The notes beneath the pieces were generated by a model. It did not search any database. It worked only from the letters and a program-made list of their open reading frames with translations, and was not told the DNA's origin. Position numbers and translations under genes: made by a program. Shown here in pieces: positions 16,897 to 56,589 of a stretch of 64,000 nt of DNA. The stretch's first letter is position 1. Each line of letters opens with the position of its first letter. Source of the DNA: Actinomycetota bacterium (lineage in GTDB: Bacteria > Actinomycetota > Thermoleophilia > Gaiellales > Gaiellaceae); contig JBKPLR010000001.1 of NCBI GenBank assembly GCA_046731695.1, forward strand, positions 4,442-68,441, read 5' to 3'.

Positions 16897-16978
16897 GCTC
16901 CCTGTTCACGGCGCGCCCAGCCTCCTCCCCACTGCGAGCCTACTGCGGAAACCGTCACGCGTGGGTGACGCGAATGTG
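16897..16978 (-). repeat. Conserved intergenic element, copy D (diverged)
   Basis: Sense (minus) strand: GTCACCCACGCGTGACGGTTTCCGCAGTAGGCTCGCAGTGGGGAGGAGGCTGGGCGCGCCGTGAACAGGGAGC. Shares the GGGGAGGAGGCTGGGCG core and AGGGAGC tail with copies A-C. Confidence 0.7.
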
Positions 16979-17006
16979 CCGAAAGCGTGTCGGTTTCGAG
17001 GGCGGG

Positions 17007-17370: not shown

Positions 17371-17786
17371 CGGCGTCCTACGGCAGCCGGCGACTGGCCG
17401 GTTCGCTTCAGGTACGAGCGGTACATCGCGCGGTCGAGCAGGTACATGAACGGGATGAAGAAGGCGGTATAGAACGCCGTGATGAACACGTGCGTTCCGA
17501 CGGATTGCTTGCTGTTGATGAGCGTGAGCGCGAAGAAAATCGCCGGGGCGAGGATCAGCGCTCGACGGACGACGCGGCTCCAGGAGGGCGGATCGACCCT
17601 GCGAACGGGGCGGCCGCTTCGCGACTTCCTAGAGGTTGGCGCGGCGTCGCGACGCTTCGAAGGCCGCGCGGGCTCGACTTCCGCCTCATCGACCTCGACT
17701 TCACGCCCCTCCTCGTCGACGTAGACGTACTCGTACTCGTGCCGGCGCTCTTTCTGCCGGCGGCGCCGCTGTTTCCGAGAAGGCAC
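17367..17786 (-). CDS. Hypothetical membrane protein (basic/acidic N-terminus, two C-terminal TM segments)
   Basis: Distal part of ORF 17367..17966. Start guessed at GTG 17784-17786, just after the hutI stop. ...ALILAPAIFFALTLIN...HVFITAFYTAFFIPFMYLL. Confidence 0.45.
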   Translation of the reverse strand: MPSRKQRRRRQKERRHEYEYVYVDEEGREVEVDEAEVEPARPSKRRDAAPTSRKSRSGRPVRRVDPPSWSRVVRRALILAPAIFFALTLINSKQSVGTHVFITAFYTAFFIPFMYLLDRAMYRSYLKRTGQSPAAVGRR

Positions 17787-22533: not shown

Positions 22534-22566
22534 TCCCGCGTGGATCAGACGCCTCCGGCCGCGACA

Positions 22567-22650
22567 GGGTCCCTTAGTACGGTCCGCCCGGCCTCCTCCC
22601 CAAGGCGATCGTAACGAGGAAATGCGCACGTGTCTGTCACGGATTCGTGC
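22567..22650 (-). repeat. Conserved intergenic element, copy C
   Basis: Sense (minus) strand: CACGAATCCGTGACAGACACGTGCGCATTTCCTCGTTACGATCGCCTTGGGGAGGAGGCCGGGCGGACCGTACTAAGGGACCC. Confidence 0.85.
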
Positions 22651-22670
22651 CGGATGTGTGTCGGCGCTCG

Positions 22671-29158: not shown

Positions 29159-29229
29159 TGCGGGGTCGTCTAACGGTAGGACGCTCGGCTCTGGACCGAG
29201 TAGTCTAGGTTCGAATCCTAGCCCCGCAG
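29159..29229 (+). tRNA. tRNA-Gln (anticodon CTG)
   Basis: Hand-folded cloverleaf: acceptor TGCGGGG/CCCCGCA (U1-A72), anticodon stem CTCGG/CCGAG with loop CT-CTG-GA, T arm CTAGG-TTCGAAT-CCTAG, discriminator G. CCA is not encoded. Confidence 0.9.
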
Positions 29230-29243
29230 CCTCGTTTTCCGGC

Positions 29244-29512: not shown

Positions 29513-29522
29513 GCCTCTTCCG

Positions 29523-29595
29523 GGCGCATTCGTCTAGTGGCCTAGGACACCGCCCTCTCACGGCGGCGGCACGGGTTCGAATCCCGTATGCGCCT
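29523..29595 (+). tRNA. tRNA-Glu (anticodon CTC)
   Basis: Acceptor GGCGCAT/ATGCGCC, anticodon stem CCGCC/GGCGG with loop CT-CTC-AC, T arm ACGGG-TTCGAAT-CCCGT. Confidence 0.9.
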
Positions 29596-29682
29596 TTCCC
29601 TGGCATTTGGTTAAGCCGAGTCCGGCTCGCCTGCCACCCGCAGCATAGGACTGGCGGCAGTCGAAGATGAGCCACTCGGCCC

Positions 29683-37469: not shown

Positions 37470-37486
37470 CGAACCGGCACGCTTTC

Positions 37487-37570
37487 GTCACGGTCTCGTG
37501 ACAGACACGTGCGCTTTTCCTGGTTACGCTCGCCTCGGGGAGGAGGCCGGGCGAACCATGTTCAGGGAGC
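37487..37570 (+). repeat. Conserved intergenic element, copy A
   Basis: GTCACGGTCTCGTGACAGACACGTGCGCTTTTCCTGGTTACGCTCGCCTCGGGGAGGAGGCCGGGCGAACCATGTTCAGGGAGC, between the convergent cax and serine hydrolase genes. Confidence 0.85.
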
Positions 37571-37578
37571 TGCGAGGC

Positions 37579-42743: not shown

Positions 42744-43138
42744 GCCTGCTCGTCGAGGTGGCGCCGGTACGCCTCGACGTCGAGCAGCGCGTCGACCTCC
42801 GACGGATCGGTGAGGCGGACACGGACGAGCCACCCGTCGCCATACGGATCCTCGTTCACGGTCTCGGGTGCGTCGACGATCGCCTGGTTGATCTCCACGA
42901 TCTCGCCGGAGAGCGGAGCGATCACGTTCGAGACGGCCTTCACGGACTCGACCTCGGCGTAGGACTCGTCCCGTGTCACGGTCACTCCCTCTTGGGGCGG
43001 CTCGAAATGAACGAGCTCGCCCAGGGCGTCTTGCGCGAACCAGGTGATGCCGAAGACGGCTTCATCCCCGTCGATGCGGGCCCAGTCGTGCTCGGGGTGG
43101 TACCGCAGATCGTCCGGGTAGCTCTCAGCTCCCGCCAT
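42740..43138 (-). CDS. gcvH: Glycine cleavage system H protein
   Basis: From Met13 of ORF 42740..43174. Lipoyl-lysine motif EVESVKAVS. Confidence 0.9.
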   Translation of the reverse strand: MAGAESYPDDLRYHPEHDWARIDGDEAVFGITWFAQDALGELVHFEPPQEGVTVTRDESYAEVESVKAVSNVIAPLSGEIVEINQAIVDAPETVNEDPYGDGWLVRVRLTDPSEVDALLDVEAYRRHLDEQA

Positions 43139-44198
43139 TCCGCTCCTTCGAGTAGATCGGCTTCTTGACCACACGCGCGCCGCGTTGCCGGCTGCGGATG
43201 TCGATGGTCAACTCCCGTCCAGGCTCGGCCAGCTCCGCGCCCACGTAGCCAAGCCCGATCCCCCGCTCGAGCATCGGTGAATGCGAGCCCGACGTCACCG
43301 TCCCAACGGCCGAATCGCCGTCCTGAATCGTCATCCCCTGGCGGGGGATACCGGGCTCCTCCATGACGAACGCGGCCAAGCGCTGCTCGGGCCCTTCGTC
43401 CTTGATTCTGCGCAGCTCATCCGAGCCGGTGAAGTCCTTGTCGAGCGAGCAGACCCAGCCGAGCCCCGCGGAGATCGCGTCGGTGTCCGGGCCGATGTCG
43501 TTTCCGTGGAGCGGATAACAGACCTCGAGCCGGAGCGTGTCCCGGGCGCCGAGCCCACACGGCACAGCCCCGCGCTGGAGGACGCGATCCCAGAGCTCGC
43601 CGCCCGCATCGGCGGCTACGAGCAGCTCGACCCCGAGCTCACCTGTGTAGCCCGTCCGGTTGACGGTGCAGCGAACGCCGTCGATCTCCCCGTCGGCAAA
43701 TGTGAACGCCGGCGCATCGGGAAGGCCGAGACGCTCGATCGACCGCGCGCCCTGGACGGCGAGCAGCACGTAGTCGTCCGAGACGTCACGCACCGCGGCG
43801 CCGTCCGGCTCGCGATCGTGCAGCCAGGAGCGAACTGCCTCGCGGTTCGATGCATTGACGATCAGGAGGAACCGCTCGGCGTTGCGCACGTACACGATGA
43901 GGTCGTCGACGATCCCGCCCTGCTCGTTCGTGAGCAGCGTGTACTGGGCCTTGCCCGGGCCGACACGGTCGAGGTCATTCGAGAGGACCGACTGCAGGAA
44001 CTCCCGCGACCGCGGCCCCTCCACCTCGAGCTCCCCCATGTGCGAGACGTCGAAAACCCCACAGTCGCTGCGCACCGCCAAGTGCTCCGGGATGACGCCC
44101 TCGTACTGCACGGGCATCTCCCACCCGGCGAAGGGGACGAGCCGCGCATCGAGCGCGACGTGCCGGTCGTAGAGCGGCGTTCGGAGCAGTGTCTGCAT
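43125..44198 (-). CDS. gcvT: Aminomethyltransferase (glycine cleavage T protein)
   Basis: 357 aa, TPLYDRHVALDARLVPFAGWEMPVQY...FDVSHMG. Confidence 0.95.
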   Translation of the reverse strand: MQTLLRTPLYDRHVALDARLVPFAGWEMPVQYEGVIPEHLAVRSDCGVFDVSHMGELEVEGPRSREFLQSVLSNDLDRVGPGKAQYTLLTNEQGGIVDDLIVYVRNAERFLLIVNASNREAVRSWLHDREPDGAAVRDVSDDYVLLAVQGARSIERLGLPDAPAFTFADGEIDGVRCTVNRTGYTGELGVELLVAADAGGELWDRVLQRGAVPCGLGARDTLRLEVCYPLHGNDIGPDTDAISAGLGWVCSLDKDFTGSDELRRIKDEGPEQRLAAFVMEEPGIPRQGMTIQDGDSAVGTVTSGSHSPMLERGIGLGYVGAELAEPGRELTIDIRSRQRGARVVKKPIYSKERNGGS

Positions 44199-44207
44199 CG
44201 GCCGCTG

Positions 44208-44213
44208 ATGCTA
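44208..44213 (-). promoter_or_regulatory. -10-like TAGCAT, 9 nt upstream of the gcvT ATG
   Basis: Minus strand reads TAGCAT-cagcggccg-ATG. Confidence 0.35.
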
Positions 44214-44253
44214 AAGGCGCGAGACTTGCCCGCGCGGCTCTACTGAGAGAGGC

Positions 44254-44303
44254 CCAAAAAGGAGCCGCCCCGGCTTCGGCTTTGAGGCCGAGGCCGGGGC
44301 GGC
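44254..44303 (-). terminator. Intrinsic terminator downstream of ftsZ (end of the dcw transcription unit)
   Basis: Minus strand: GCCGCCCCGGCCUCGGCCUCAAAGCCGAAGCCGGGGCGGC (about 18-bp stem) followed by UCCUUUUUGGG. Confidence 0.75.
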
Positions 44304-44425
44304 CGGACCGGGTCATCGCGGGCCGACCCTAGCGGTCGACCCGAGAGGGCAATGGGAATCTTTACCAGGTGCGCACGGGCTTAAACCTGTTCAACCACAC
44401 CTTTTTCGAGCTCCGCGAAAACGGC

Positions 44426-45520
44426 TCAGGCGTCGCGGAGAAACGAAGGCACCTCGAGGATCTCCTCCGGTACCTCGAATCGCTCTGCGGGAACCTCGCG
44501 CCCGCCCTCCTGCTGCTCCTGCGGCGCCTCCGCCGGCTCCTCTACGCGGCGCCGTCGGCGCAGCCTCGCCGGGCCGAAGCCGGTGGCGATCACCGTTACG
44601 CGGATCTCGTCGGCGAGCGAGTCGTCGATGACCGCGCCGAAGATCACGTTCGCGTTCTGGTCGGCTGCCGACGTCACGACCTCGGCGGCCTCGTTCACCT
44701 CGAACAGCCCGATGTTCGGTCCGCCGGTCACGTTCAGGAGAATCCCGGTCGCGCCCTCGATCGACGACTCGAGAAGCGGAGACGAGACCGCCTGCCGAGC
44801 TGCCTCGGTCGCGCGGTTCTCGCCGGAGGCCGCGCCGATCCCCATCAGGGCCGACCCCGCCTCGTTCATGATCGTCCGCACGTCGGCGAAGTCGAGGTTG
44901 ACGAGCCCGGGGATCGTGATCAGATCTGTGATCCCCTGCACCCCCTGGCGAAGGACGTCGTCCGCCATCTTGAACGCGTCGATGATCGATGTCCTCTTCT
45001 CGACCACCTGCAGGAGCCGGTCGTTCTCGATCACGATCAGCGTGTCGACGTGATCGCGAAGGTCCTCGACGCCGAGTGACGCGACCTCGGCCCGGCGACG
45101 GCCCTCGAACGAGAACGGTCGCGTGACGACGCCGACACACAGCGCGCCGAGCTCTTGGGCAAGCCGCGCGACCGTCGGCGCGGCGCCTGTGCCCGTGCCG
45201 CCGCCCTCGCCGGCAGTGACGAAGATCATGTCGGCGCCCTTCAGCGCCTCTTTCAGCTCGTCGCGGCTCTCCTCCGCGGCGGCCTTCCCAATCCCCGGGT
45301 CAGCGCCCGCGCCGAGCCCTCTCGTGACATCGGCGCCGATCGGCATCTTCACGTCGGCGTCGCACATCAAGAGCGCCTGGGCATCGGTGTTGATCGCGAT
45401 GAACTCGACGCCGGTCAGCCCTGCGTCGACCATCCGGTTGACGGCGTTGGATCCGCCACCGCCCACCCCGACGACCTTGATCAGGGCCAGGTAGTTCCCC
45501 GCTTGATCTCTCATGCTCAA
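44426..45520 (-). CDS. ftsZ: Cell division GTPase FtsZ
   Basis: 364 aa, [13 protein letters not shown], tubulin signature [10 protein letters not shown]. Confidence 0.97.
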
Positions 45521-45568
45521 CTCGCCTCGACCTGAACCTCTACTGGAAGGCTACCTTCCAAGTCGGGC

Positions 45569-45597
45569 AGCGTACGCTGCTTCGACGTGCCTGTCAA
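45569..45597 (-). promoter_or_regulatory. Sigma-70-type promoter for ftsZ (TTGACA-N17-TACGCT)
   Basis: Read on the minus strand in the ftsQ-ftsZ spacer, followed by a 6-bp hairpin GGAAGG-UAG-CCUUCC (45545..45559) in the putative 5' UTR. Confidence 0.45.
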
Positions 45598-45625
45598 CGA
45601 GGAGATGCAGGCAAAACTCTAAGGC

Positions 45626-46444
45626 TCAATCTTCGGGTTGAGAGTTTGAGCCAGCGACAGGGCGCTCCGGAACGCTCACGTCGAGGTAGGCGTAGCCGCC
45701 GTGCGACAGCACTTCCGGCAGCACGCGCGAGGCAACGGCGAGCTTGAGGGGAACGGCCCGTACGTCGCCGAGACGGAGCTCCAGTCCCGACGCGAGCAGG
45801 AATGTGAGCTGGTGCGCCTGTGCGCGAACGACGCGGACCCGGAGGTGAAGCTTGATTCGCCGCGCGAGCGCGAGCGCCCGCACCGCGCGAAGGCCGAGGC
45901 GATCCGTGAGCGCTGCCCCGACCCGCGGTTCGCCGGACCGGGTGAGCCAGATTTGTGGCAGCCCGCGCCTCGACCGGGGCCGTACCTTCGTGATCACTCG
46001 CGCGTTTGCGGCGACGAGCCACGCACCCGCCCCGCGCCGGGCGATCGCAACCGGATGCTCGGGCCGAACGGCGACGCGCAGCGTATGGGGGAAGTCCCGG
46101 TCGTAGCTCGCATCTGCGACTTCGGTCAGCCCGCCGATCCGCCGGTCGATCTCGGCACCGTCGAGCGCGAGTAGGCTCGTGCCCTTCAGCGGGGCAAGCG
46201 CCGACCGAACGTGCGCGGCAACCGCCGGCGGAGCGCCGACGACCTCGATCTGGGTGAGCGCGAACACCGGGGTCACGCGCGCGAGTGCATACAGCCCGAT
46301 GGCACCGGCAACGATGGCGAAGCCGACGAGCAGCGAGCGCCCCGAGGGGAGCACGCGGAGGATCGGGGCGTCGTGCGTCCTTCCCGGGAGCGGGACAACA
46401 GCCGCGCGAGCGCGCGCGGATTGCTGAGGCCGACGCTGGGCCAC
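45626..46444 (-). CDS. ftsQ: Cell division protein FtsQ/DivIB
   Basis: 272 aa: basic N-terminus, one TM, POTRA-like IEVVGAP...VRSALAPLKGTSLLALD. Confidence 0.8.
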   Translation of the reverse strand: MAQRRPQQSARARAAVVPLPGRTHDAPILRVLPSGRSLLVGFAIVAGAIGLYALARVTPVFALTQIEVVGAPPAVAAHVRSALAPLKGTSLLALDGAEIDRRIGGLTEVADASYDRDFPHTLRVAVRPEHPVAIARRGAGAWLVAANARVITKVRPRSRRGLPQIWLTRSGEPRVGAALTDRLGLRAVRALALARRIKLHLRVRVVRAQAHQLTFLLASGLELRLGDVRAVPLKLAVASRVLPEVLSHGGYAYLDVSVPERPVAGSNSQPED

Positions 46445-46482
46445 GGCGCGGCTTTCGCCACGCTACCCGCGCCTCCTCCGCG

Positions 46483-47334
46483 CTACGGCAAGCGGGACCG
46501 CACTCCGGCCAAGCCTGACTCGACCAGCTCCGGGCGGCCGGTCCTGAGCCCGAACAGGACCGCGTGCCACGGCCCGAGCCGGTGGAAGTAGAGAGCCCGC
46601 TCCCGAAACGTCGAGCCAGCCTGGCCGCCCGCCGCGACATAGGCGCCGAGCAACGTCTCGCTGAAGGCCTCGCCCGGGCCGTGCAGCAGCCAGGCGAAGT
46701 CGAGCGCCGGATCGCCGACGCGAGCGTCGCTCCAGTCGATGACGCCGGTGACGGCCTCGTCTTGGCAAAGGACGTGTTCCGGACCCAGATCGCCGTGAAT
46801 GAGTACGGGGTTGAGCTCCGGCAGACTCGAGAGGTAGCTCTCGAACATCGACTCCGCGCGACGCGCCTCGCTCGAGTCGAGCAGCCGAATAACTGTTTCG
46901 CAGCGCTTCACAAATGCAACCTGCTCGTCGAGCCAGTCTCCCGTCGTGAGCTCGGGAAGCCCGGCCTCGGCTGCGCCCGAGATCTCGTGCAGCGCCGCGA
47001 GAAAGCCACCGACCTCATTCGCCAGAGCCGGGTCCTCGTGCGAAGAGCTCAGTGGCTTGCCGGGAATCTTTGGGTGCACCATGACGAAGGTCGAAGGTGT
47101 GTCCTCGAGAACGGCGACCTCCGGTACGGGGATTGGCAGCGTCCGCCCGAGCAGCGGGAGCAGCGCCGCCTCCTTTCGCAGGTCGGCGCGAACTTCGGGC
47201 CTCCGCGGCAGGCGCACGATCCATTCGTCGTCGACGTCGAAGGCAATCGAGTCCCACCCGTTGTCGATGCGAACGACGCTTCGGGCCTCGGCGCCGAGGC
47301 GCTCCTGCACCAGCGACAGGAGCTCGTCCTCCAC
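46483..47334 (-). CDS. APH/choline-kinase-fold phosphotransferase
   Basis: Distal 283 codons of ORF 46483..47886 from GTG 47332-47334. Catalytic loop LIHGDLGPEHVL and metal loop VIDWSDARVGDPALDF. Confidence 0.75.
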   Translation of the reverse strand: MEDELLSLVQERLGAEARSVVRIDNGWDSIAFDVDDEWIVRLPRRPEVRADLRKEAALLPLLGRTLPIPVPEVAVLEDTPSTFVMVHPKIPGKPLSSSHEDPALANEVGGFLAALHEISGAAEAGLPELTTGDWLDEQVAFVKRCETVIRLLDSSEARRAESMFESYLSSLPELNPVLIHGDLGPEHVLCQDEAVTGVIDWSDARVGDPALDFAWLLHGPGEAFSETLLGAYVAAGGQAGSTFRERALYFHRLGPWHAVLFGLRTGRPELVESGLAGVRSRLP

Positions 47335-48215
47335 TATGCGACGGGCGGGAGCTCGATCGGGCCGAGGAACTCGACCTCGTGCTCGAGCTCGACGCCGAAC
47401 TGCTCGCGGGCACGGCGCCTGGCCTCGACCATCAACGCCAGAGCGTCGCCGGACCCCGCGCCGTCCGCGTTCTCGATGAAGTTCGCGTGCCGCGGGGAGA
47501 TCTGCGCGCCGCCGATGCGGTGGCCCTTCAGGCCGCAGGCCTCGAGCATCCGGCCGGCTGAGAGCTCGTGCTCGGGGTTCTTGAACACACTCCCGAACGT
47601 GCGCTTGTTCGTCGGCTGCGCCGCCTTGCGAAGCGCCTGTAGCTCGAAGACGGTCGCCTTGATCTCGTCGACGGGCCGAGGCGTCAGCCGGAACTCCGCG
47701 CGGGCAACCACCTGACCGTGGTGAAGGTCGGATCGCCGATAGCTGAGGCCAAGCTTTCGGGGAGTCAGCCAGCGCGAGCCGCCGCCTTCGACGACGAGCG
47801 CGCGCTCGAGGATCGCAGCCCAGTCGCTGCCGTACGCGCCGGCGTTCATCCAGACGCCGCCTCCCACCGTGCCCGGGATCGCGCACGCGAACTCGAAGCC
47901 GCCGAGACTCGCCGCGCGAGCCCGGTGGAGACAGACGGCGTTGGTCGCCCCGCCGCCGGCGACCAGACGCTCGCCCTCGATCTCGGCGGTCGCCAGCTCT
48001 CCCGCCAGCCGCAAGACGAGCCCGCCGAATCCCTCATCGGCGACCAGCAGATTCGAGCCGAGTCCGATCGTGGCCACTTGTATTGCCTGCTCGCGCGCCC
48101 AGGCGAGAGCCTCCTCCAGCTCCGCAAGCGTTTCGGGCCTCGCGACGGCGCGCGCCGGCCCGCCGGTGCCGACGGTCGTGAAGCGGGAGAGTGCAACGCC
48201 CTCCTCGATCTTCAC
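47334..48215 (-). CDS. murB: UDP-N-acetylenolpyruvoylglucosamine reductase
   Basis: 293 aa, FTTVGTGGPA, IGLGSNLLV, FKNP. Confidence 0.9.
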   Translation of the reverse strand: MKIEEGVALSRFTTVGTGGPARAVARPETLAELEEALAWAREQAIQVATIGLGSNLLVADEGFGGLVLRLAGELATAEIEGERLVAGGGATNAVCLHRARAASLGGFEFACAIPGTVGGGVWMNAGAYGSDWAAILERALVVEGGGSRWLTPRKLGLSYRRSDLHHGQVVARAEFRLTPRPVDEIKATVFELQALRKAAQPTNKRTFGSVFKNPEHELSAGRMLEACGLKGHRIGGAQISPRHANFIENADGAGSGDALALMVEARRRAREQFGVELEHEVEFLGPIELPPVA

Positions 48216-49417
48216 TCGAGTGCCTCGAGGATCAGCGGCGCGGCTCGATCGACGTCGCCGGCCCCGATCGTGAGCACGAGGTCACCTGGACGAGCACGGC
48301 GCGCGAGGAAGCGGGCTGCGTCCTCGAGCGAAGGAGTCCACCCGATTTCCATCCCCGGTCGCTCCGTCGCGACCGCGTCGACGACGAGTTTGCCGTCGAC
48401 CCCGCCGATCGGAGCCTCGCGGGAGCCGTAGACATCGGTGACCGCGACGGTGTCGGCCGCGGCGAGCGCAGCGCCGAGCTCGCTGGCCAAGTGCCGCGTC
48501 CGCGAGTAGAGATGCGGCTGGAAGACGACAAGCACCCTGCCCCCGTTCGCCGCCGCCCGCGCGGTCGCGACCGTGGCCGCGATCTCGGTCGGATGGTGGC
48601 CGTAGTCGTCGAAGACGCGCACGCCGTGGACCTCGCCACGCGGCTCGAACCTGCGACCGGCTCCCTCGAACTCCAGGAGAACCCCTTCCGCGTCGGCTCG
48701 CGCCACTCCCGCGAGCTCGAGCGCGGCCAGCGCGGCGGCCGCGTTGCGCCGGTTGTGCTCGCCGCGCACGCGGAGCTCGAGGTGGACGGGCTCGAGCTCG
48801 TCGCCCCGCACTTGCTCGGGGGCTGCGTCGAGCCACCGATCGAGGAGCGTGCGGACCTCCGCCTGCGAAGCGAACGTCGTGTGGTGGTCGAGCTCGACGT
48901 TGGTGAGAACCGCGATGCCGGGGCGCAGAAGCTCGAGCGACCGGTCGGATTCGTCGCCCTCCGCGACGAGCCAGCCCTCGCCGGCTCGGCCGTTCCCGCC
49001 GAGCTGTGGAACCTCCCCACCGATCACGAATGCGGGATCCAGGCCGAGCCGGTCGAGACAGAACGCGATCATCCCCGCCGTCGTCGTCTTGCCGTGCGCG
49101 CCCGCGACGACGATCGATTGCCGCAGCTCGACGAGCTCGGCGAGAAGCTCTCCCCGCTTTCGCACCGCACGCCCCGCAATCTCCGGGTTGTCGGGCGCGA
49201 CGGCGGTAGAGACGATCACCTCCGCCTCCTCGGGGACGTTCGCCGCGTCGTGGCCGATCGCGACGGGGATCCCCGCAGTCTCGAGCTTCTCGACGTACGA
49301 CGAGCGAGCCTGGTCCGAGCCGCCAACCTCCGCGCCCCACTCGCTCGCCACGAGTGCGAGCGCGCTCATCCCCGCGCCGCCGATTCCGACGAACCAGAAG
49401 CGCCTACCCTCGAGCAA
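48212..49417 (-). CDS. murC: UDP-N-acetylmuramate--L-alanine ligase
   Basis: 401 aa, FVGIGGAGMSALA, GAHGKTTT. Confidence 0.9.
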   Translation of the reverse strand: MLEGRRFWFVGIGGAGMSALALVASEWGAEVGGSDQARSSYVEKLETAGIPVAIGHDAANVPEEAEVIVSTAVAPDNPEIAGRAVRKRGELLAELVELRQSIVVAGAHGKTTTAGMIAFCLDRLGLDPAFVIGGEVPQLGGNGRAGEGWLVAEGDESDRSLELLRPGIAVLTNVELDHHTTFASQAEVRTLLDRWLDAAPEQVRGDELEPVHLELRVRGEHNRRNAAAALAALELAGVARADAEGVLLEFEGAGRRFEPRGEVHGVRVFDDYGHHPTEIAATVATARAAANGGRVLVVFQPHLYSRTRHLASELGAALAAADTVAVTDVYGSREAPIGGVDGKLVVDAVATERPGMEIGWTPSLEDAARFLARRARPGDLVLTIGAGDVDRAAPLILEALE

Positions 49418-50474
49418 GCGCGATCAGCTCCTCGGCGATCTGGTCCGCGGCGTCGGGGCGTGCCACGCGCAGCATCGCCGCGCTCATGTCCGCGAGGCGG
49501 CGCGGGTCGTCCAGGAGCGAGCGAATGATCTCCGGCGCCCGCCCGAGGTCGGTCTCGGGCAAGACGATCGCACCGCCGGCAGCCTGGAAGTAGCGCGCGT
49601 TCTTGGTCTGGTGGTCGCCGGTCGCGAATGGGTACGGCACGAGGACCGCCGGCTTCCCGGCGGCCGCGAGCTCCCACACCGTCGAGCCGCTGCGCATGAG
49701 CGCGAGGTCGGCCGCGCCGTAGGCCGCGCCGAGTCCGTCGAGCACCGGCAGGAGCACGTAGTCGGGCCGCGTCACGCGCCGCCGCAATGCTTCGTAGTCG
49801 CGCTCGCCCGAGATGTGCAGAACGGCCGGGCCGGTCGGCCCGAAGGTCTCGACGGCGAAGTCGTTCAGCGCTCTCGCGCCGGCGCGCGCACCTGCGACGA
49901 GGAGGACGGGGCCCTCCGGCGGAAGGCCGAGCTCGGCGCGCGCCTCTCCGCGCGCACGTGCGTGCGCCTTCGCGGGCAGCGGGCGCCCGACGACCTCGTA
50001 CTTGGGGCCGTCCCGGCCCGGCACCGGGAATGCCAGGAAGACGCGCTTGGCGAAGGGCGCCGCGAGCCGGTTCGCGAGCCCGAGCTGCGCGTCGGCCTCG
50101 GTCAGCGCCGTGGGAATCCTCCGCCGCGCGGCCGCGAGCACCATCGGCCCCGCGACGTAGCTGCCCGCGCCGAGGACGACGTCGGGCCTCCGTCGCGCGA
50201 GAATCCTGTCGCAGGCGGCCGGCGCGGCGAGCGAGTGCAACGCGGCGCGCGCCTGCGCGAGCCCCGGCCTGCGCGGCAGGCCGCTCACGCGAAAGGTGTC
50301 GAGCTCGTACCCGGCCTCAGGAACGAGCTGCGCCTCGGCGCGACCCGGCGACCCGGCGAACGTCACGCGTGCTCCGCGGGCGCGAAGCGCTCCCGCCACG
50401 GCGAGCGCGGGCAGCACGTGGCCGGCCGTCCCCCCGGCTGCGATCAGGCACGCTGGCGCTTCTCGCTCCGGCAT
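49404..50474 (-). CDS. murG: Lipid I N-acetylglucosaminyltransferase MurG
   Basis: 356 aa, AAGGTAGHVLPALAV, C-terminal GT28 domain. Confidence 0.9.
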   Translation of the reverse strand: MPEREAPACLIAAGGTAGHVLPALAVAGALRARGARVTFAGSPGRAEAQLVPEAGYELDTFRVSGLPRRPGLAQARAALHSLAAPAACDRILARRRPDVVLGAGSYVAGPMVLAAARRRIPTALTEADAQLGLANRLAAPFAKRVFLAFPVPGRDGPKYEVVGRPLPAKAHARARGEARAELGLPPEGPVLLVAGARAGARALNDFAVETFGPTGPAVLHISGERDYEALRRRVTRPDYVLLPVLDGLGAAYGAADLALMRSGSTVWELAAAGKPAVLVPYPFATGDHQTKNARYFQAAGGAIVLPETDLGRAPEIIRSLLDDPRRLADMSAAMLRVARPDAADQIAEELIALARG

Positions 50475-51549
50475 TGCCCGCGATGTTAAGGAGGATCCCG
50501 ACCGAGGCGAGGCCGACGACGAGGCTCGACCCGCCGTACGAGACGAACGGAAGCGGGATTCCGGTCAGCGGCGCGAGGCCCATCACGGCGGCGAGGTTGA
50601 TCGCAGCCTGGCCGCAGACGAGCACTGTCAAGCTCGCCGCGAGGCGCTTGCCGAAGGGGTCCTTGCAGCCGAGGGCGATGCGCAGCCCGGCGTAGGCGAA
50701 GGCCGCGTACGCCAGGATCACCATCGTCGCGCCGACGAGGCCGAGCTCCTCACCGATGATCGCGAAGATCATGTCGGTGTGCGCCTCGGGGAGGAAGTTC
50801 GCCTTCTCGATGCTCTGGCCGAGCCCGCGCCCGAAGATCCCGCCGGAGCCAAGCCCGATGATCGCCTGCACGGTCTGGTAGCCCGCTCCCTGGGCGTCCT
50901 GCCAGGGGTTGATGAAGCTGAAGAGGCGGGCGCGGCGATACGGCTCGAACCAGACCGCGAGCAGGCTGAGCGCGGCGGCGATCCCGAGGCCCGCCCCGAG
51001 CGTGCGGACCGGCGTTCCAGCGACGAGCAGCACGGCGGCGAGCATGAGGAGAATCGCGATCGCCGTCCCCAGGTCGGGCTCGGCGAGGAGGAGGACGCAG
51101 AAGACGGCTGTGAGGAGGCCGATCGGGCGCCAAAGCTGCTTGAGCGTCTTCGGCGGTTTCTTGCGCGTGAGGTAGGCGGCCGCCCAGATCGCGAGAGCGA
51201 GTTTCGCCAGCTCGGACGGCTGGAAGACCGCGGGGCCGACGGTGATCCAACGCCGCGCGCCGTTCACCGCCTGACCGAGCGCGAGCACGCCGGCGAGGAG
51301 CGCGAGGCTCGTGACGATGAGGATCGGTGCGAGGCCCCTCAGGATCCGGTAGTCGATGCGCGACACGACGACCATCAGGACGAGCCCGAGGAGCGCGTAG
51401 CCGACCTGCCGCTTGAGGAAGTACGCGGGATCGCCGTTCGCAAGCGCCGCGGAGGCCGACGTCGCGCTGTAGACCATCACCAGGCCGAAGGCGACGAGGC
51501 CCAGGGTGACGAAGGTCAGGATGTGCGCCTCGAGCTGTCCGCGCTTCAC
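50317..51549 (-). CDS. ftsW: SEDS peptidoglycan polymerase FtsW
   Basis: 410 aa, polytopic, PSELAKL, GLPLPFVSYGGSS. An Arg-rich 50-aa tail overlaps the murG start by 158 nt (true stop uncertain). Confidence 0.85.
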   Translation of the reverse strand: MKRGQLEAHILTFVTLGLVAFGLVMVYSATSASAALANGDPAYFLKRQVGYALLGLVLMVVVSRIDYRILRGLAPILIVTSLALLAGVLALGQAVNGARRWITVGPAVFQPSELAKLALAIWAAAYLTRKKPPKTLKQLWRPIGLLTAVFCVLLLAEPDLGTAIAILLMLAAVLLVAGTPVRTLGAGLGIAAALSLLAVWFEPYRRARLFSFINPWQDAQGAGYQTVQAIIGLGSGGIFGRGLGQSIEKANFLPEAHTDMIFAIIGEELGLVGATMVILAYAAFAYAGLRIALGCKDPFGKRLAASLTVLVCGQAAINLAAVMGLAPLTGIPLPFVSYGGSSLVVGLASVGILLNIAGNAGARSASVPDRSRGDGRPRAARARRGGSASRPRSTRDVRRVAGSRRGAARS

Positions 51550-52703
51550 CGGGACAGGTTCTGCACCAGCCTCCTGAACTCCTCGCCGCGCGCCTCGAAG
51601 TCGCGGAACTGGTCGTAGCTCGCGCAGGCCGGCGAGAGCAGCACGACGTCGCCGGGCTCGGCGTCGATGCTGGCGAGCGCTGTGGCGAGGTCGCCGTCGC
51701 GCTCTGCCTGCGGGATTGCCGCCGCGAGCTCGTCCGCGGTCTCGCCGATCACGTGGACGCTCTTGACGTTCGATTCGAGCGCGGCGGCGAGCGGCGCGAA
51801 GTCCTCGCCTTTGCGCGACCCGCCGAGGACCAGGTGGACCGGTTCGTCTTCGTAGGCGGCGAGGGCGCGGAGCGCTGCGGCGACGTTGGTCGCCTTCGAG
51901 TCGTTCACGTAGCGGACGCCGTTCAGCTCGCGGACGAGCTCGAGGCGGTGCGGGACTCCGGGGAAGGTGCGGAGTGCATGCGCGATCTGCTCGTCGTCGA
52001 TGCCCGCGGCGCGGGCAGCGGCCGTTGCCGCGGCCGCGTTCTCGCGGTTGTGGGCGCCGCGGATGAGCGGCTCTGCCGGAAGCGGGTCGTCGGCCGAGAA
52101 CTCGATTCCGTCGAGGCCGAGGCCTCCGGGGACAATCTTGCTACGCGCCCGTTCGAAGATGCGGAGCTTCGCGTCGCGGTAGGCCTCGAAGGTGGCATGG
52201 CGGTCGAGGTGGTCCGGCTCGAGGTTCAACAGCACCGCGATCTCGCAAGCGAGCTCGTGAACGTCCTCGAGCTGGAAGCTGGAGATCTCGCAGACGACCC
52301 AGGCCCCAGACTCGACTTGCCCGTCGAGCTCGGTGAGGGCGCGGCCGACGTTTCCGGCCACCGGCGCGTCGAGCATCACGCCGAGCAGCTCCGAGGTCGT
52401 CGTCTTGCCGTTCGTGCCGGTGACGCCGAGGATCTTCGCGCCGAGGAGCCGGTAGCCGAGCTCGACCTCGCTCCAGATCGGGATCCCGCGCCGCTCGGCC
52501 TCCGCGACGAGCGGCGCCTCCCGGGGCACGCCCGGGCTCTTGACGAGCAGCTCCGCCCCGTCGAGCAGCGAGAGGTCGCCGTCGTTCCCGAGCTCCCTGT
52601 CTGCGCCGACGACCTCGACTCCGCGCCGCTCGAGCGCGGCTGAGGCCGCCCGTCCCGACCGCGCCAGCCCGAGCACGACAACCCGCTTAGGAAGCTCAGT
52701 CAT
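51546..52703 (-). CDS. murD: UDP-N-acetylmuramoylalanine--D-glutamate ligase
   Basis: 385 aa, VLGLARSG, GVTGTNGKTTT. Confidence 0.9.
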   Translation of the reverse strand: MTELPKRVVVLGLARSGRAASAALERRGVEVVGADRELGNDGDLSLLDGAELLVKSPGVPREAPLVAEAERRGIPIWSEVELGYRLLGAKILGVTGTNGKTTTSELLGVMLDAPVAGNVGRALTELDGQVESGAWVVCEISSFQLEDVHELACEIAVLLNLEPDHLDRHATFEAYRDAKLRIFERARSKIVPGGLGLDGIEFSADDPLPAEPLIRGAHNRENAAAATAAARAAGIDDEQIAHALRTFPGVPHRLELVRELNGVRYVNDSKATNVAAALRALAAYEDEPVHLVLGGSRKGEDFAPLAAALESNVKSVHVIGETADELAAAIPQAERDGDLATALASIDAEPGDVVLLSPACASYDQFRDFEARGEEFRRLVQNLSR

Positions 52704-52746
52704 GCGGCAACGTTAGATCCCAACGCGACGGGCCAGCGGCGCAGAC

Positions 52747-52773
52747 GGCCGAGCCAGCAAAGCCGGCTCGGCC
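52747..52773 (-). other. 12-bp GC-rich hairpin in the mraY-murD spacer
   Basis: GGCCGAGCCAGC-AAA-GCCGGCUCGGCC. The single mismatch is A.C on the plus strand but G.U on the minus (mRNA) strand. No U-tract. Confidence 0.35.
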
Positions 52774-52798
52774 TGAAAGCGACATCGCAAGCGACGTC

Positions 52799-53803
52799 TC
52801 AGCGGAAGCCGGTGAAGTAGCGGTAGTACAGGGCGAAGCCGATCGCGCAGAGGATCCCCGTCACGATCCAGAAGCGCACCATGATCTTCGTCTCGGACCA
52901 GGCTTTCAGCTCGAAGTGGTGCTGGATCGGCGCCATCAGGAACACGCGCCGGTTGAAGTACTTGAAGCTGAAGACCTGCACGATCACCGACAGCGCAGCG
53001 ACCGCAAAGATCCCGCCGATCAGCAGCAGGAGGAAGATCGTCTTCGTGAAGATCGCAAACGCCGCCAGTGCGCCGCCGAGCGCCATCGAGCCCGTATCGC
53101 CCATGAACACCTCGGCCGGCCAGGCGTTGTACCAGAGGAACCCGATTGCGCCCCCGATCAGCGCCGCGGCGATGATCCCGAGGTCGAGCTTCGTGTCGAA
53201 GCGGTGCCCGGGCGAACCGGAGCGGATCCACGAGATCACGATCATGGCCGCGAACGTGAACAGCGCGATGATCACGGTTCCGGCCGCGAGCCCGTCGACG
53301 CCATCCGTCAGGTTGACGCCGTTCGCAGCGCCGGCGATCACAAGGAAGAGCAGTCCGTAGTACGCGTACGAGAGCTCGATGTCGCCGATGCCCGGGACGT
53401 AGACGCTCGTCGGAATGTGCTGATGCTGCACCGCGACGGCTACCCCGACAGTGATCGCGCCGAGCAGGATCAGCTTCCAGCGTCCGTTCAGGCCGAGCGA
53501 GCGCCGGTGGGTCAGCTTGATGAAGTCGTCGAGGAAGCCGATCGCGCCGCACGCGAGTGTGACGAACAGCACTGTGAGCGCCGGAACGGTGTACTTGCTC
53601 AGCGCTAGGAAGCCCGCCGTCGCCGCCAGCAGGATCAGGAGACCGCCCATGATCGGCGTGCCCTGCTTGGTCGCGTGGTGCTCCGGGCCTTCCTCGCGGA
53701 TGTGCTGGCCGAACTCGTTTCGGCGCAGGAACTCGATGAACTTCGGGCCGAGGAGGATCGAGATGAGGAGCGCGAGGACGCCTGCGATCAGGACTCGGCT
53801 CAA
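52799..53803 (-). CDS. mraY: Phospho-N-acetylmuramoyl-pentapeptide transferase
   Basis: 334 aa, polytopic, NLTDGVDGLA, MGDTGS. TTG start overlapping the murF stop. Confidence 0.95.
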   Translation of the reverse strand: MSRVLIAGVLALLISILLGPKFIEFLRRNEFGQHIREEGPEHHATKQGTPIMGGLLILLAATAGFLALSKYTVPALTVLFVTLACGAIGFLDDFIKLTHRRSLGLNGRWKLILLGAITVGVAVAVQHQHIPTSVYVPGIGDIELSYAYYGLLFLVIAGAANGVNLTDGVDGLAAGTVIIALFTFAAMIVISWIRSGSPGHRFDTKLDLGIIAAALIGGAIGFLWYNAWPAEVFMGDTGSMALGGALAAFAIFTKTIFLLLLIGGIFAVAALSVIVQVFSFKYFNRRVFLMAPIQHHFELKAWSETKIMVRFWIVTGILCAIGFALYYRYFTGFR

Positions 53804-55029
53804 ACGCCCACCGCCGCCAGCGCCTCCGCCACGGCCTCGAGCCCGATCGCACGTGACGCCTTGACGAGCACGCAGTCGCCTGGCTCGACGACCTCTCGCG
53901 CGGCCGTCACCGCCGCGGGCACATCGGCCGCCCAGCGAGTGATCGGGACGTCCGCGGCGCCTTCGAGGTAGCCGCGGGCGAGCTCACCGACCGCGATCAG
54001 CGCCTGGACTCCGTACCGCGTCGCCACCGCACCGATCTCGCGGTGGAACGTCGGCGCGCCGGGTCCGAGCTCGGCCATGTCCCCGAGGATCGCGACGCGC
54101 CGCCGATCACCCGCGCGGTCGGCGAGGTACCCAAGCGCGGCGCGCATCGAGACCGGGTTCGCGTTGTAGGCGTCGTTGATGATCAGGCCACCGCCGGGGA
54201 GCTCGACCTCTTCACCACGCCAGCGGGCGAAGTCGACGTCCACGCGCTCCGGTCGCGGAAGGCCGAGCGCGTCGAGTGCGGCCAGCGCGGCCGTCGCGTT
54301 CGCGGCCTGGTGCCGCGAACTGAAGTTGAAGCTGACGCCGCCCACGACTGCGCGGCCGTGCTCGATTTTGAGCTCGGGCTCCGCCAGGCGAACCACCTCG
54401 ACGTCATCGCGCTCGACCGGGAACTCCGCCGGGACGATGGCGGTGCCGCCTGCGGGAAGCGCCGCGATCAGCTCGCCCTTCGCGCGCAGAACTCCCTCCA
54501 GTGAGCCGACGAGCTCCAGGTGCGCAGGGCCCACGTTCGTAACGACGCCGATCCCCGGCCGCGCGATCCGGCAGAGGTCGGCGATCTGCCCGAAGCCCCG
54601 CATCGCAAGCTCGAGGATGCAGACTTCGGTGTCGGACTCGAGCCGGCACAGCGTCAGCGGGACCCCGATCTCGTTGTTGTAGCTCGCCTCCGCGGCGACG
54701 GTGCGAGCGGCGGGCGCGCAGAGCGCGGCGAGGATGTCCTTGGTCGACGTCTTGCCCGTCGAGCCTGTGATGCCCACGACGCGTGCGCCTGCCCGCTCGC
54801 GGACGAGCGATCCCAGCGCGGCCATTGCCTCGAACGGATGCTTTGGGACGAGCGTCGCGGCCGCGCCGCGCACCAGCGCGTCCTCGCAAAAGTCGATGCC
54901 ACGACCGACCGCCACGAAGAGGTCGCCGGGCTCGACGCGCCGCGAGTCGATCCTGACGCCTGTGATGACGTCACCGCGTGCCTCGAGCTCGCCGAGCTGC
55001 GGCAGCTCGTCGATGCGGACCGGGATCAC
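53800..55029 (-). CDS. murF: UDP-MurNAc-tripeptide--D-alanyl-D-alanine ligase
   Basis: 409 aa, GITGSTGKTSTK, Mur ligase C-domain. Confidence 0.9.
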   Translation of the reverse strand: MIPVRIDELPQLGELEARGDVITGVRIDSRRVEPGDLFVAVGRGIDFCEDALVRGAAATLVPKHPFEAMAALGSLVRERAGARVVGITGSTGKTSTKDILAALCAPAARTVAAEASYNNEIGVPLTLCRLESDTEVCILELAMRGFGQIADLCRIARPGIGVVTNVGPAHLELVGSLEGVLRAKGELIAALPAGGTAIVPAEFPVERDDVEVVRLAEPELKIEHGRAVVGGVSFNFSSRHQAANATAALAALDALGLPRPERVDVDFARWRGEEVELPGGGLIINDAYNANPVSMRAALGYLADRAGDRRRVAILGDMAELGPGAPTFHREIGAVATRYGVQALIAVGELARGYLEGAADVPITRWAADVPAAVTAAREVVEPGDCVLVKASRAIGLEAVAEALAAVGV

Positions 55030-56417
55030 GCGGTCGCCCCGAGCCGGCGGAGCGCGTCGCGGGCGACCTCGCGGTCGTCGAAGGGGATCGTGCGGTCGGC
55101 GAACTCCTGGCCTTGCTCGTGCCCCTTGCCGGCGATCACGACGACGTCACCTTCGTTCGCGAGCGAGATCGCCCGCTCGATCGCCGTCGTCCGGTCCGGG
55201 TCGACCTCGACCTCGGCGGTGACGCCCTCCAGGATCTCGTCGATGATCGCCTGCGGCTCCTCACTGCGGGGATTGTCCGAGGTCACGATCGCGACGTCTG
55301 CGAGCTCCGACGCGATCCGGCCCATGATCGGACGCTTGCCGCGGTCGCGGTCGCCGCCGCAGCCGAAGACGCAGATGAGCTTCCCGCTCGCGAGCTCGCG
55401 CGCCGTGCGGAGCACGCTCTCGAGGGCCTCGGGCTTGTGGGCGTAGTCGACGAGCACCTCGAACGGCTGGCCTTCCGAGACCGACTCGAACCGGCCCGGG
55501 ACTCCCCGGACGGCCTCGAGGCCGCGCGCGATCGCCTCGTCGTCGATCCCGAGCAGCCGGCTCGCGGCGATCGCGCCGAGCGCATTCTCGGCGTTGAAGC
55601 GGCCCCGGAGCTTGAGGTCGATTCCGTGCAGCGCTTCGGGTCGCACCTTTGCGTCCCCGGCGAAGCCGAACGTGAGCGCATCGGGGCGGTCCTGCGCGAG
55701 CTTCCGGCCCCACTCGGTACCGACGTTGATCGCCGCAGGCGGCCGGGCCCCGACGAAGAGCCGCCGCTTGGCCTCGAAGTACCGCTCCATCGTCCCGTGG
55801 AAGTCGAGGTGGTCCTGGCTGAGGTTCGTGAAGACGAGGGCCGAGAAGCGCACGTGGTCGAGCCGCCCCAGCTCCGACCCGTGCGAGGTCGCTTCCATCG
55901 CACAGCTGCGGTCGCCGGCGTCGAGCATCTCCCTGAACGCGTGCTGGATGTCGATCGCCTCGGGCGTCGTCCGGATCGCCGGGCGGCGTTCGCCTCCGAC
56001 GCGGCCCTCGATCGTTCCCAGCAGCCCGGGTCGGCGACCGGCCGCGGCGAGGATCGAGTAGAGCAGGAAGGTCGTCGTCGTCTTGCCGTTGGTGCCCGTG
56101 ACGCCGGCGACCTGCAGCTCCTGGCTCGGGTGCCCGAAGAACTCGTCGGCGACAACGGCCATGGCGCGGCGGGCGTCGAGGACGACGAGCTGCGGCACGT
56201 CGAGCTCCAGCGGGCGCTCGACGACGAGCGCGGCGGCGCCGTTCGCTACGGCCTCGGAAGCGAAATCGTGCCCGTCGGCGCGGCTCCCCGGAACGCAGAA
56301 GAAGAGGGCGTCCGGGCCGACGGCACGGGCGTCGTAGGCGAGGTCGCCGATCTCCACGGGGGCGCGTCGCAGGACGTCCGCGGGGGCGAGCGCTGCGATG
56401 ACGCGCTCGAGGTGCAT
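55026..56417 (-). CDS. murE: UDP-MurNAc-L-Ala-D-Glu--2,6-diaminopimelate (or L-Lys) ligase
   Basis: 463 aa, GVTGTNGKTTT, DYAHKP. Confidence 0.9.
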   Translation of the reverse strand: MHLERVIAALAPADVLRRAPVEIGDLAYDARAVGPDALFFCVPGSRADGHDFASEAVANGAAALVVERPLELDVPQLVVLDARRAMAVVADEFFGHPSQELQVAGVTGTNGKTTTTFLLYSILAAAGRRPGLLGTIEGRVGGERRPAIRTTPEAIDIQHAFREMLDAGDRSCAMEATSHGSELGRLDHVRFSALVFTNLSQDHLDFHGTMERYFEAKRRLFVGARPPAAINVGTEWGRKLAQDRPDALTFGFAGDAKVRPEALHGIDLKLRGRFNAENALGAIAASRLLGIDDEAIARGLEAVRGVPGRFESVSEGQPFEVLVDYAHKPEALESVLRTARELASGKLICVFGCGGDRDRGKRPIMGRIASELADVAIVTSDNPRSEEPQAIIDEILEGVTAEVEVDPDRTTAIERAISLANEGDVVVIAGKGHEQGQEFADRTIPFDDREVARDALRRLGATA

Positions 56418-56426
56418 CGGCGGGCG

Positions 56427-56432
56427 AGTCTA
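56427..56432 (-). promoter_or_regulatory. -10-like TAGACT, 9 nt upstream of the murE ATG (internal dcw promoter candidate)
   Basis: Minus strand reads TAGACT-cgcccgccg-ATG. The same hexamer is seen before hutH and the MBL gene. Confidence 0.35.
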
Positions 56433-56498
56433 CCAAGCAGGCCAGCCGTCGCCGGGTCGGCTCGGCGCGTCAGATCCGGCGTTTTTGCAGCACTTTTT

Positions 56499-56582
56499 TC
56501 ACACTTCCGTGACGGACACGTGCGCCCTTTCTCGGTACGATCGCCTCGGGGAGGAGGCTGGGCGAACCGCATTAAGGGACCC
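56499..56582 (+). repeat. Conserved intergenic element, copy B
   Basis: TCACACTTCCGTGACGGACACGTGCGCCCTTTCTCGGTACGATCGCCTCGGGGAGGAGGCTGGGCGAACCGCATTAAGGGACCC, in the 173-bp ftsI-murE gap, opposite in orientation to the dcw genes. Confidence 0.85.
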
Positions 56583-56589
56583 GCACGGT

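Follow-up and report, generated by a model that had tools for sequence, protein, structure and literature searches.

Four copies of one intergenic element

We analysed a stretch of 64,000 nucleotides (nt) from an Actinomycetota bacterium of the family Gaiellaceae (assembly GCA_046731695.1, contig JBKPLR010000001.1), which is called the window below and has a G+C content of ~69-70%. Four of its intergenic gaps share a conserved non-coding element, here copies A to D. An earlier note, made from the DNA letters only, had pointed out this element, and all four copies were found again in the same gaps. Copy A lies between the stop codon of a Na/Ca-exchanger gene (37469) and that of a convergent beta-lactamase-fold gene (37579). 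Copy B belongs to the dcw cluster, where it separates the stop of ftsI (56590) from the start of murE (56417); the two genes are on the minus strand, and it points against them. Copy C lies between formiminotransferase (stop 22671) and hutH (start near 22521) and shares their direction, and hutH keeps its own GGGATAGACT leaderless promoter downstream of it. Copy D separates a divergent cupin gene (start 16987, plus strand) from a metallo-beta-lactamase-fold gene (start near 16850, minus strand), the latter with a TAGACT promoter of its own. The four copies show all four possible arrangements relative to their neighbours, in agreement with the earlier statement that the orientation to the flanking genes is not fixed.

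Positions within a copy were counted as an index (idx) from the first base of its TAnnnT hexamer. The predicted transcription start is the first G of the G-run, idx 12. The parts of the four copies are:

37475..37558, plus strand: copy A, whole unit (idx -50 to +33), nhmmer E value 1.3e-25
37475..37513, plus strand: copy A, array of four 11-bp-phased units, putative response-regulator boxes reaching the -35 region (position-frequency tables, conservation profile)
37525..37530, plus strand: copy A, -10 hexamer TACGCT, with a G two bases 5' of it (TAnnnT is kept in hits with an unforced pattern)
37537..37567, plus strand: copy A, predicted start G 37537, conserved initial transcribed region GGGGAGGAGGCCGGGCGAACC and W-rich/GGG tail (exact 17-mer, profile; start from spacing)
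56486..56569, plus strand: copy B, whole unit (profile match)
56536..56541, plus strand: copy B, -10 hexamer TACGAT
56548..56578, plus strand: copy B, predicted start 56548, G-box GGGGAGGAGGCTGGGCGAACC and tail
22580..22663, minus strand: copy C, whole unit (profile match)
22608..22613, minus strand: copy C, -10 hexamer TACGAT
22571..22601, minus strand: copy C, predicted start 22601, G-box GGGGAGGAGGCCGGGCGGACC and tail
16909..16992, minus strand: copy D, whole unit, subtype 2, CGCAGT...GGGCGCGCC (profile match)
16937..16942, minus strand: copy D, -10 hexamer TAGGCT
16900..16930, minus strand: copy D, predicted start 16930, G-box GGGGAGGAGGCTGGGCGCGCC and tail

An nhmmer profile built from 118 relatives, in a search with 137 hits, matched the window at these four places and nowhere else, with E values of 1e-25, 1.3e-25, 4.3e-23 and 1.3e-17 (profile extents: A 37470-37572, B 56481-56583, C 22566-22668, D 16895-16997). 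A fifth copy was absent from the window, the next best match in a window-only re-run with --max having an E value of 0.087. The 17-mer GGGGAGGAGGCYGGGCG occurs four times as an exact match, at 37537 and 56548 on the plus strand and at 22585 and 16914 on the minus strand. Within a 61-nt core, copies A and C differ at 5 positions, A and B at 8, and B and C at 8, without indels, while copy D is 69-70% identical to the other three. These recomputed values equal those of the hand alignment in the earlier note (5-8 differences). The conserved unit reaches further in the 5' direction than the extent of about 80 nt given there. The element is a genuine conserved non-coding family.

Anatomy of the unit

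The unit measures ~95 bp, from about -62 to +31 around the predicted start. The 118 copies align ungapped, with information confined to idx -50 to +43, near which conservation ends; the strictly conserved part is idx -50 to +33. Position-frequency tables revealed an array of direct repeats at the 5' side, with the consensus (T)CG[T/G][C/G]AC at idx -50, -39 and -28, and a fourth unit, CGYGCG, at idx -17. The spacing of the units is exactly 11 bp, the promoter-proximal ones are best conserved, and the array occupies ~ -62 to -24 from the predicted start. As a sequence pattern, direct repeats in 11-bp phase are those of OmpR/PhoB/GlnR-type sites. The -35 region reads cAGACA at idx -23 to -18, agreeing with TTGACA only in GACA, and CCCACG in subtype 2.

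A weakly conserved, degenerate spacer (idx -11 to -2) follows, then a conserved G at idx -2 and the -10 hexamer TAnnnT, present in all four window copies. Downstream of the hexamer is a GC-rich hexamer (discriminator), CGCCTY or, in subtype 2, CGCAGY. It is succeeded by GGGGAGGAGGCYGGGCG, AACC or CGCC, a W-rich patch (GTACTAA-like) and GGG. The first 22-31 predicted transcribed nt are almost invariant.

The 5' half as a promoter

The 5' half of the unit recurs before quite different downstream sequences, in related genomes, in fetched loci and in soil metagenomes. The metagenome scan was anchored on the upstream block and TAnnnT only, leaving the downstream sequence free, and returned 120 soil contigs. 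Of these, 51 start with GGGGAGG, 25 carry CCCCACCC-hairpin leaders and 44 have other G-rich leaders or protein-coding starts. The hexamer TAnnnT was also retained in 15 related hits for which the search pattern had left it free.

Among the sibling units with the same upstream module, some open reading frames (ORFs) start 6-9 nt after the hexamer and are thus leaderless. One encodes a ComM/ChlI-type protein, with its Pfam domain from residue 20; other products are a conserved 85-88-aa protein (at least 5 loci) and a 78-aa protein. Because the 5' half precedes other leaders, and leaderless starts by 6-9 nt, we read it as a promoter and the G-box as its initial transcribed region. Leaderless mRNAs appear to be common in this genome: TAnnnT stands 5-8 nt before a candidate start codon in 17 of 56 ORFs of the window with high G+C at third codon positions (GC3), versus 0.7% of control codons. 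Leaderless geometry being usual for the lineage, transcription is predicted to start at the first G of the G-run (37537, 56548, 22601 and 16930).

Spread and conservation in place

In species-representative genomes, the unit was found at no fewer than 117 genomic loci (pattern TANNNT-N6-GGGGAGGAGGCNGGGCG). Nearly all of them belong to metagenome-assembled genomes of Gaiellaceae/Gaiellales/Thermoleophilia, and several loci share one genome. Viral contigs gave 0 matches to either search pattern, and a phage or mobile origin was dropped for this reason.

Positional orthologues in other contigs, all of them collected via the element itself, numbered 8 for copy A, at least 13 for copy B, at least 12 for copy C and at least 6 for copy D. 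Around copy B, 129-131 nt separate the predicted transcription start from the murE start in every case, and the C-D spacing of 5.7 kb recurs in four loci (L019, L085, L102, L109). The flanking proteins are mostly 70-90% identical among orthologous loci, and the DNA beyond +31 is unconserved. Positional orthology, together with a conserved unit beside unconserved flanking DNA, therefore indicates purifying selection on each copy and argues strongly against a mobile repeat. Each copy is kept in place by selection, over family-level divergence.

Neighbouring genes were surveyed around 142 non-redundant copies, with gene calls by a crude GC3 heuristic. The downstream gene was convergent in 93 (65%) and co-directional in 49 (35%). 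The convergent share was 68% for type 1, the subtype with the GCCTC/GAGGC stem, and 53% for type 2, a difference that was not decisive as a test of a terminator role.

At gathering thresholds, Rfam returned two tRNAs for the window and tRNAs only for 29 related loci. At E <= 10 around copy A, its best match had an E value of 0.11. Neither the motif nor Gaiellales promoters were found described in the searchable literature. The motif matches no described RNA or repeat family (Rfam 15, searchable literature); the earlier note, too, had been unable to place it in a family.

The G-rich start and its predicted RNA

In units with this promoter, G makes up 56-59% of idx 10-29. Four or more tracts of at least two Gs were counted at idx 10-29 in 94 of 110 units, versus 21 of 110 in a control stretch. 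At +3 to +10 lies GGAGGAGG, a strong Shine-Dalgarno (SD)-like sequence. The anti-SD listed for Thermoleophilia is UCACCUCCUU (PMC10783764). The AGGAGG core of GGGGAGGAGG complements the CCUCCU of this published, class-level anti-SD (PMC10783764), on which the comparison is based, as the fetched loci hold no 16S rRNA 3' end.

A small ORF behind the SD-like box was considered and rejected. In the canonical copies, idx 22-33 is free of ATG, GTG and TTG, and neither an ORF nor a reading frame is conserved. A variant G-box, GGGGAGGAGGTTGGGTGTGCC, was seen at two loci (L123, L153). It has a GTG 6 nt after the SD-like box, opening an in-frame 245-codon ORF in L153, and its leader may be a genuine 16-nt 5' untranslated region. 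At another locus, a second G-box (CTCGGGGAGGAGGCCGGGCGAACCGTTCTTAGGG) is located 200 nt downstream of a normal unit (L104:1002-1037, plus strand), without the promoter module. It is preceded by a strong hairpin (ACGGGGGAACCAGGGGTTTCCCCGT) and may be a decayed duplicate or belong to another promoter.

The 3' end of the RNA may be marked by a GNGAAC / W-rich / GG motif, which is shared with sibling families. Copy A has no terminator-like site, that is, no stem followed by a T-run.

Structure and covariation

The secondary structures proposed in the earlier note were scored as the fraction of paired cells, against slid controls. For the CACG-N4-CGTG hairpin, 30-35% of cells were paired, a level equal to that of the slid controls, and the alternative pairing of its middle arm is equalled by the +2 slid control. 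The pyrimidine tract thought to pair with GGAGGA lies in the degenerate spacer and reaches 62%, versus 55-74% in the controls. The GCCTC/GAGGC hairpin is 88% paired without informative covariation; it extends across the predicted start, and the CGCAGY subtype, including copy D, has lost it. The seemingly different, compensatory hairpin of copy D is a GTSAC variation of the direct-repeat unit. None of these proposals was supported.

Single-sequence folds of copies C and D were shuffle-like on both strands (z +0.2 to +1.0), and only copy A folds notably, on the minus strand (z = -4.0). In the fold of copy A, the -10 region and the 3' portion of the G-box formed an extended hairpin; it was rejected because TACGAT variants set A against an invariant G. 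RNAalifold, applied to 12 copy C orthologues from +31 to the hutH promoter, gave 5 invariant pairs, no covariation and no shared structure. The top non-adjacent mutual-information pairs in the 5' half are explained by a 1-nt register shift in some copies and by the AGACACGTG/CCACGCGTG subtype, not by base pairing.

Covariation was detected between idx 10-12 and idx 27-29, with 96% of cells paired. The counts at idx 10:29 were T:A 83, G:C 23, G:T 4 and G:A 6, and both sides were switched at one orthologous locus. This element could be a dyad operator, or some transcripts could start two bases earlier. Likenesses to parS, sigma-54 and extracytoplasmic function (ECF)-sigma promoters, attC and the T-loop, judged by eye, were discarded, since their defining bases are missing.

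Interpretation

On balance, we think that each copy is a self-contained transcription-initiation cassette, rather than a folded 80-nt RNA or a mobile repeat. Judged from its sequence, the unit probably gives rise to a G-rich RNA that is very short and untranslated, its 5' end resembling a ribosome-binding site. An OmpR/PhoB/GlnR/MtrA-type response regulator would bind the four phased units on one helix face, recruit the housekeeping (sigma-A type) RNA polymerase and activate the promoter. A short untranslated RNA beginning with GGGGAGGAGG would then be made, whose positions +3 to +10 would mimic a strong SD; its G tracts may form a two-tier G-quadruplex. The unit would act independently of its neighbours, with dozens of copies per genome under one regulator. 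Of the roles suggested in the earlier note, the protein-binding module is retained in another form than first framed, with the 5' half as a promoter with phased activator-type boxes. The small RNA (sRNA) gene family is likewise retained in altered form, in that the 3' half holds the predicted transcript start.

Several observations weigh against such a cassette. At best, the -35 region matches as nnGACA, which is weak, and no promoter was called here by an E. coli-type scan. The predicted start site was placed purely by its spacing from the hexamer. The sole covarying pairs, idx 10-12/27-29, span this start, an arrangement at odds both with a simple promoter and with an RNA whose first base is idx 12. 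Compared with shuffled downstream sequence, the natural one does not make the 5' G-box more accessible (p = 0.3-0.6), so that a seed or SD-decoy role gains no support. After +31, no conserved terminator or structure was found in the 12 copy C orthologues. About 65% of the copies, by the crude gene calls, are directed at the 3' end of a convergent gene, whose stop codon can begin as early as +23 from the predicted start, too close for a terminator to fit in between. Co-directional genes have retained a TAGACT/TACACT leaderless promoter 60-140 nt further on, and the unit is therefore not their main promoter. Finally, species differ in the G-rich leader family at one orthologous locus, and this swapping argues against a strictly sequence-specific function of the RNA.

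What the RNA would do can be stated only tentatively. It might be a multi-copy regulatory or ribosome-binding RNA acting via its conserved 5' end; the missing accessibility signal and the interchangeable leader families both count against this possibility. Somewhat more doubtful is that regulator-driven transcription acts on the neighbour: at about two thirds of the loci it would run antisense to the convergent gene or collide with its transcription, and in tandem arrangements it would cause occlusion or read-through. Against this, an invariant 22-nt start would be superfluous if the role were played in cis only. A poised polymerase or a protein roadblock, taken up below among the rivals, comes third, not far behind. 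A bolder version, which we regard as very improbable, is a regulon of dozens of orphan promoters making only ~30-nt RNA. Once the shared regulator had turned them on, the GGGGAGGAGG 5' ends of these RNAs would occupy the anti-SD tails of 30S subunits, or form 5' G-quadruplexes recognised by a protein of their own, and translation would shift from SD-led to leaderless genes, which are numerous in the lineage (an 'anti-SD sponge' under transcription-factor control).

Among the rival explanations, a DNA-level barrier or insulator has the greatest weight, though we consider it unlikely. The unit would hold polymerase, activator or a G-box protein, as a roadblock to convergent transcription and/or with an array lent to the divergent neighbour, and the RNA would be a by-product. 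This would fit the strictly conserved span of -62 to +22, which corresponds to a polymerase-promoter footprint, the end of conservation past +31, the fixed distance of 129-131 nt between the murE start and the predicted start of copy B, and the 65% of copies that face an incoming gene, its stop as near as +23 and no terminator in between. The covariation of TCG-N14-CGA with GCG-N14-CGC also resembles half-sites of a dyad operator centred near +8; the 14 bp between them, however, are asymmetric and yet invariant. Moreover, 35% of the copies have no incoming gene, and distances to divergent genes are widely scattered. In sibling families, the same promoter drives longer leaders with hairpins as well as leaderless mRNAs, so that productive transcription is the rule for promoters of this kind. 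The SD-like sequence at +3 to +10 could instead be the SD of a 5' untranslated leader for a downstream ORF, or a 5' stabiliser of the downstream mRNA of the STAB-SD type, which is documented in Bacillus thuringiensis (PMC4113751). The GGGGAGGAGGTTGGGTGTGCC variant with its in-frame GTG (245 codons in L153) and a second leader family that sets GGGTGGGGG before the era start codon speak for a leader. It is nevertheless improbable for the element as a whole, given that canonical copies lack a start codon at idx 22-33 and a conserved ORF, that the downstream gene is convergent in 65%, and that co-directional genes have a leaderless promoter of their own 60-140 nt downstream.

A structured sRNA or cis-regulatory RNA over the whole 80-100 nt, on either strand, is equally hard to uphold, including the case in which the reverse-complement strand shows a CCUCCUCCC loop like those of 6C or CcsR ('cuckoo') RNAs. 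In its favour are the minus-strand fold of copy A (z = -4.0), the covarying 3-bp helix idx 10-12:27-29, which would close a 14-nt loop, and the G-box reverse complement CCUCCUCCCC, which we take to resemble the anti-SD loops of known sRNAs. Against it, copies C and D fold at z +0.2 to +1.0 on both strands, the proposed helices remain at the slid-control level, and the mutual information of the 5' half reflects register shift and subtypes instead of Watson-Crick pairs. The G:T cells at idx 10:29, 11:28 and 12:27 suit the plus orientation, not the C-rich strand, and the opposite strand has no conserved promoter. Rfam gave no match even at E <= 10, and the 5' half is common to leaderless genes, where an RNA structure is impossible. 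The least credible candidates, largely refuted by the data, are a dispersed repeat like repetitive extragenic palindromic (REP) sequences or miniature inverted-repeat transposable elements, and a bidirectional intrinsic terminator, both akin to roles listed in the earlier note. The copies are indeed multi-copy and intergenic, occur in both orientations and are often near stop codons. However, each window copy occupies the same inter-gene position in 6 to at least 13 other species-level genomes or contigs, and no terminal inverted repeats, conserved palindrome, clusters, or viral or mobile context were seen, with fold z values of ~0 for copies C and D. A terminator is contradicted by the lack of a stem followed by a T-run, by the absence of the 5-bp GCCTC/GAGGC stem from subtype 2, and by the 35% of copies that follow no gene end on the relevant strand, some of them between divergent genes.

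If the cassette reading is true, the Gaiellaceae, an abundant and little-studied soil lineage (class Thermoleophilia), have a dedicated promoter class. It would apparently be response-regulator-dependent, mostly detached from protein-coding genes, and would emit very short G-rich RNAs. It would supply a concrete regulon candidate, with one DNA motif at many loci and in fixed positions such as the ftsI-murE gap, and a set of non-coding RNA candidates new to Rfam. It would also pose a puzzle, as the promoter is less conserved than the first 22-31 nt transcribed from it, and as two in three units are turned towards the 3' end of a neighbour. This bears on regulation and on the ending of transcription in the compact intergenic regions of leaderless-rich bacteria.

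Comparison with known systems

Multi-copy sRNA families under one two-component regulator include the streptococcal csRNAs (CiaR), the Vibrio Qrr RNAs (LuxO), OmrA-OmrB of E. coli (OmpR) and LhrC of Listeria (LisR). In working terms, these are the closest systems. The element shares with them dispersed non-coding units, presumably transcribed independently, one promoter architecture with direct repeats for a putative regulator, a conserved 5' segment and a varying context. It differs in being known from its sequence, with regulator and transcript predicted, and in having more copies, four in 64 kb and, by extrapolation, tens or more per genome. Conservation is limited to the first 22-31 nt, without a conserved terminator hairpin; the segment is SD-like instead of anti-SD-like, and two in three units are aimed at a convergent gene.

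The array was compared with operators of the OmpR family: GlnR a/b (gTnAc-n6-GaAAc), AfsQ1 (GTnAC-n6-GTnAC), PhoP direct-repeat units and MtrA GTCACAgcg repeats. Common to all are pentamer or hexamer direct repeats at 11 bp, four units amounting to two 22-bp boxes, and a promoter-proximal unit overlapping the -35 region. GTnAC-n6-GTnAC boxes are described for actinobacterial GlnR (PMC3087709), and GTCACAgcg (MtrA) is a published actinobacterial motif (PMC3087709, PMC2945938). The GT[C/G]AC core of the element fits GTnAC, and CGTCACAGAC resembles the MtrA motif (PMC3087709, PMC2945938), both being likenesses of sequence only. Unlike these operators, the element has CGYGCG as its fourth unit, and a regulon built on it would comprise mostly orphan non-coding units, not nitrogen, phosphate or cell-wall genes.

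As in STAB-SD of B. thuringiensis cryIIIA and the B. subtilis examples, an SD-like sequence lies near the 5' end, and a start codon at the distance needed for initiation is missing (PMC4113751). In contrast, there is mostly no co-directional mRNA to stabilise (~35% of the copies have one, with its own promoter), the SD-like sequence starts at +1 to +3, and the copies are dispersed and share a promoter. With REP sequences and bacterial interspersed mosaic elements, and with 6C and CcsR RNAs, the element has in common that it is intergenic and multi-copy and that its reverse complement contains CCUCCUCCCC. It is unlike them in having no conserved palindrome, Rfam match or promoter on the C-rich strand, and in being positionally orthologous.

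Other leaders behind the same promoter

Within a wider Gaiellaceae class of mini transcription units, the element would be the most frequent and the shortest member. A G-run/C-run/G-run layout with a short GC hairpin is found in many of the longer ones, and GGGCGAACC-GTACTAA-GGG looks like its shortest form. The succession of GCG[CT]G[AG]AC, a W-rich patch and GG closes at least 12 of these units, which belong to two families (F2b, F6), and was seen 12 times in the forward direction versus once as reverse complement.

A second leader family with the same promoter reads (C)GAGGG[A/C]GGCGGG-N6-8-CCCCACCC-N3-7-GGGTGGGGG. In several genomes it stands directly before the start codon of the era GTPase gene. 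Its 5' G-run, C-run and SD-like G-run could pair alternatively, as a possible translational switch. No Rfam match was obtained for this leader. Its loci are:

L020:2421-2483, minus strand
L103:6980-7060, plus strand
L097:114-176, minus strand
L169, L131 and L152

In L032 (approx. 7790-7840), a masked run of 49 Ns covers exactly the second-family leader before era.

The promoter also precedes at least six more families of G-tract-rich leaders (metagenome loci L118-L237; e.g. L127, L192, L135, L146, L155, L149, L138, L177). Examples are GGGYGGCGGGTGGA..CCCCACCCGGGTGGGG, CATGGCAGGGGGGCGGGTCGGGACCCG, GGTGGGTTGGGGTTGGGATCCC, AGGGGTCCCGGGGGACCCCTGGGGGCAG and GGAGGGAGGCCCGCGGCC. Many of these leaders are units of 55-85 nt squeezed before a convergent stop codon, and several end in GCGCGTGAAC plus a W-rich patch.

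The leaderless 85-88-aa protein (MAKAATPWGPAELVEELTLAQRAGEKRFSS...) has no Pfam match and was found at L041:319-585 (plus strand), L033 (reverse-complement offset 145), L137, L175 and L042. Directly behind the module, it may be a protein member of the same regulon.

Further observations in the window

The two tRNA genes, tRNA-Gln(CTG) at 29159-29231 and tRNA-Glu(CTC) at 29522-29596, both on the plus strand, are the sole Rfam/ARAGORN matches in the window, and both are without this promoter module. Partial matches of the 5' block to CGTGACRGACACGTGCGC, at 17478-17495 (plus strand) and 57443-57460 (minus strand), lie within coding sequence and were set aside as chance, not copies. The latter encodes NRAVTDTYEPGSTLK, in the region of a penicillin-binding-protein active-site motif. 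The dcw cell-division and cell-wall cluster is on the minus strand, with murE at 55026-56417 and ftsI at 56590-58293, and probably spans about 43000-60000. A TAGACT promoter of the leaderless type belongs to murE itself, which suggests that murE is transcribed separately from ftsI, with copy B in the gap between the two.

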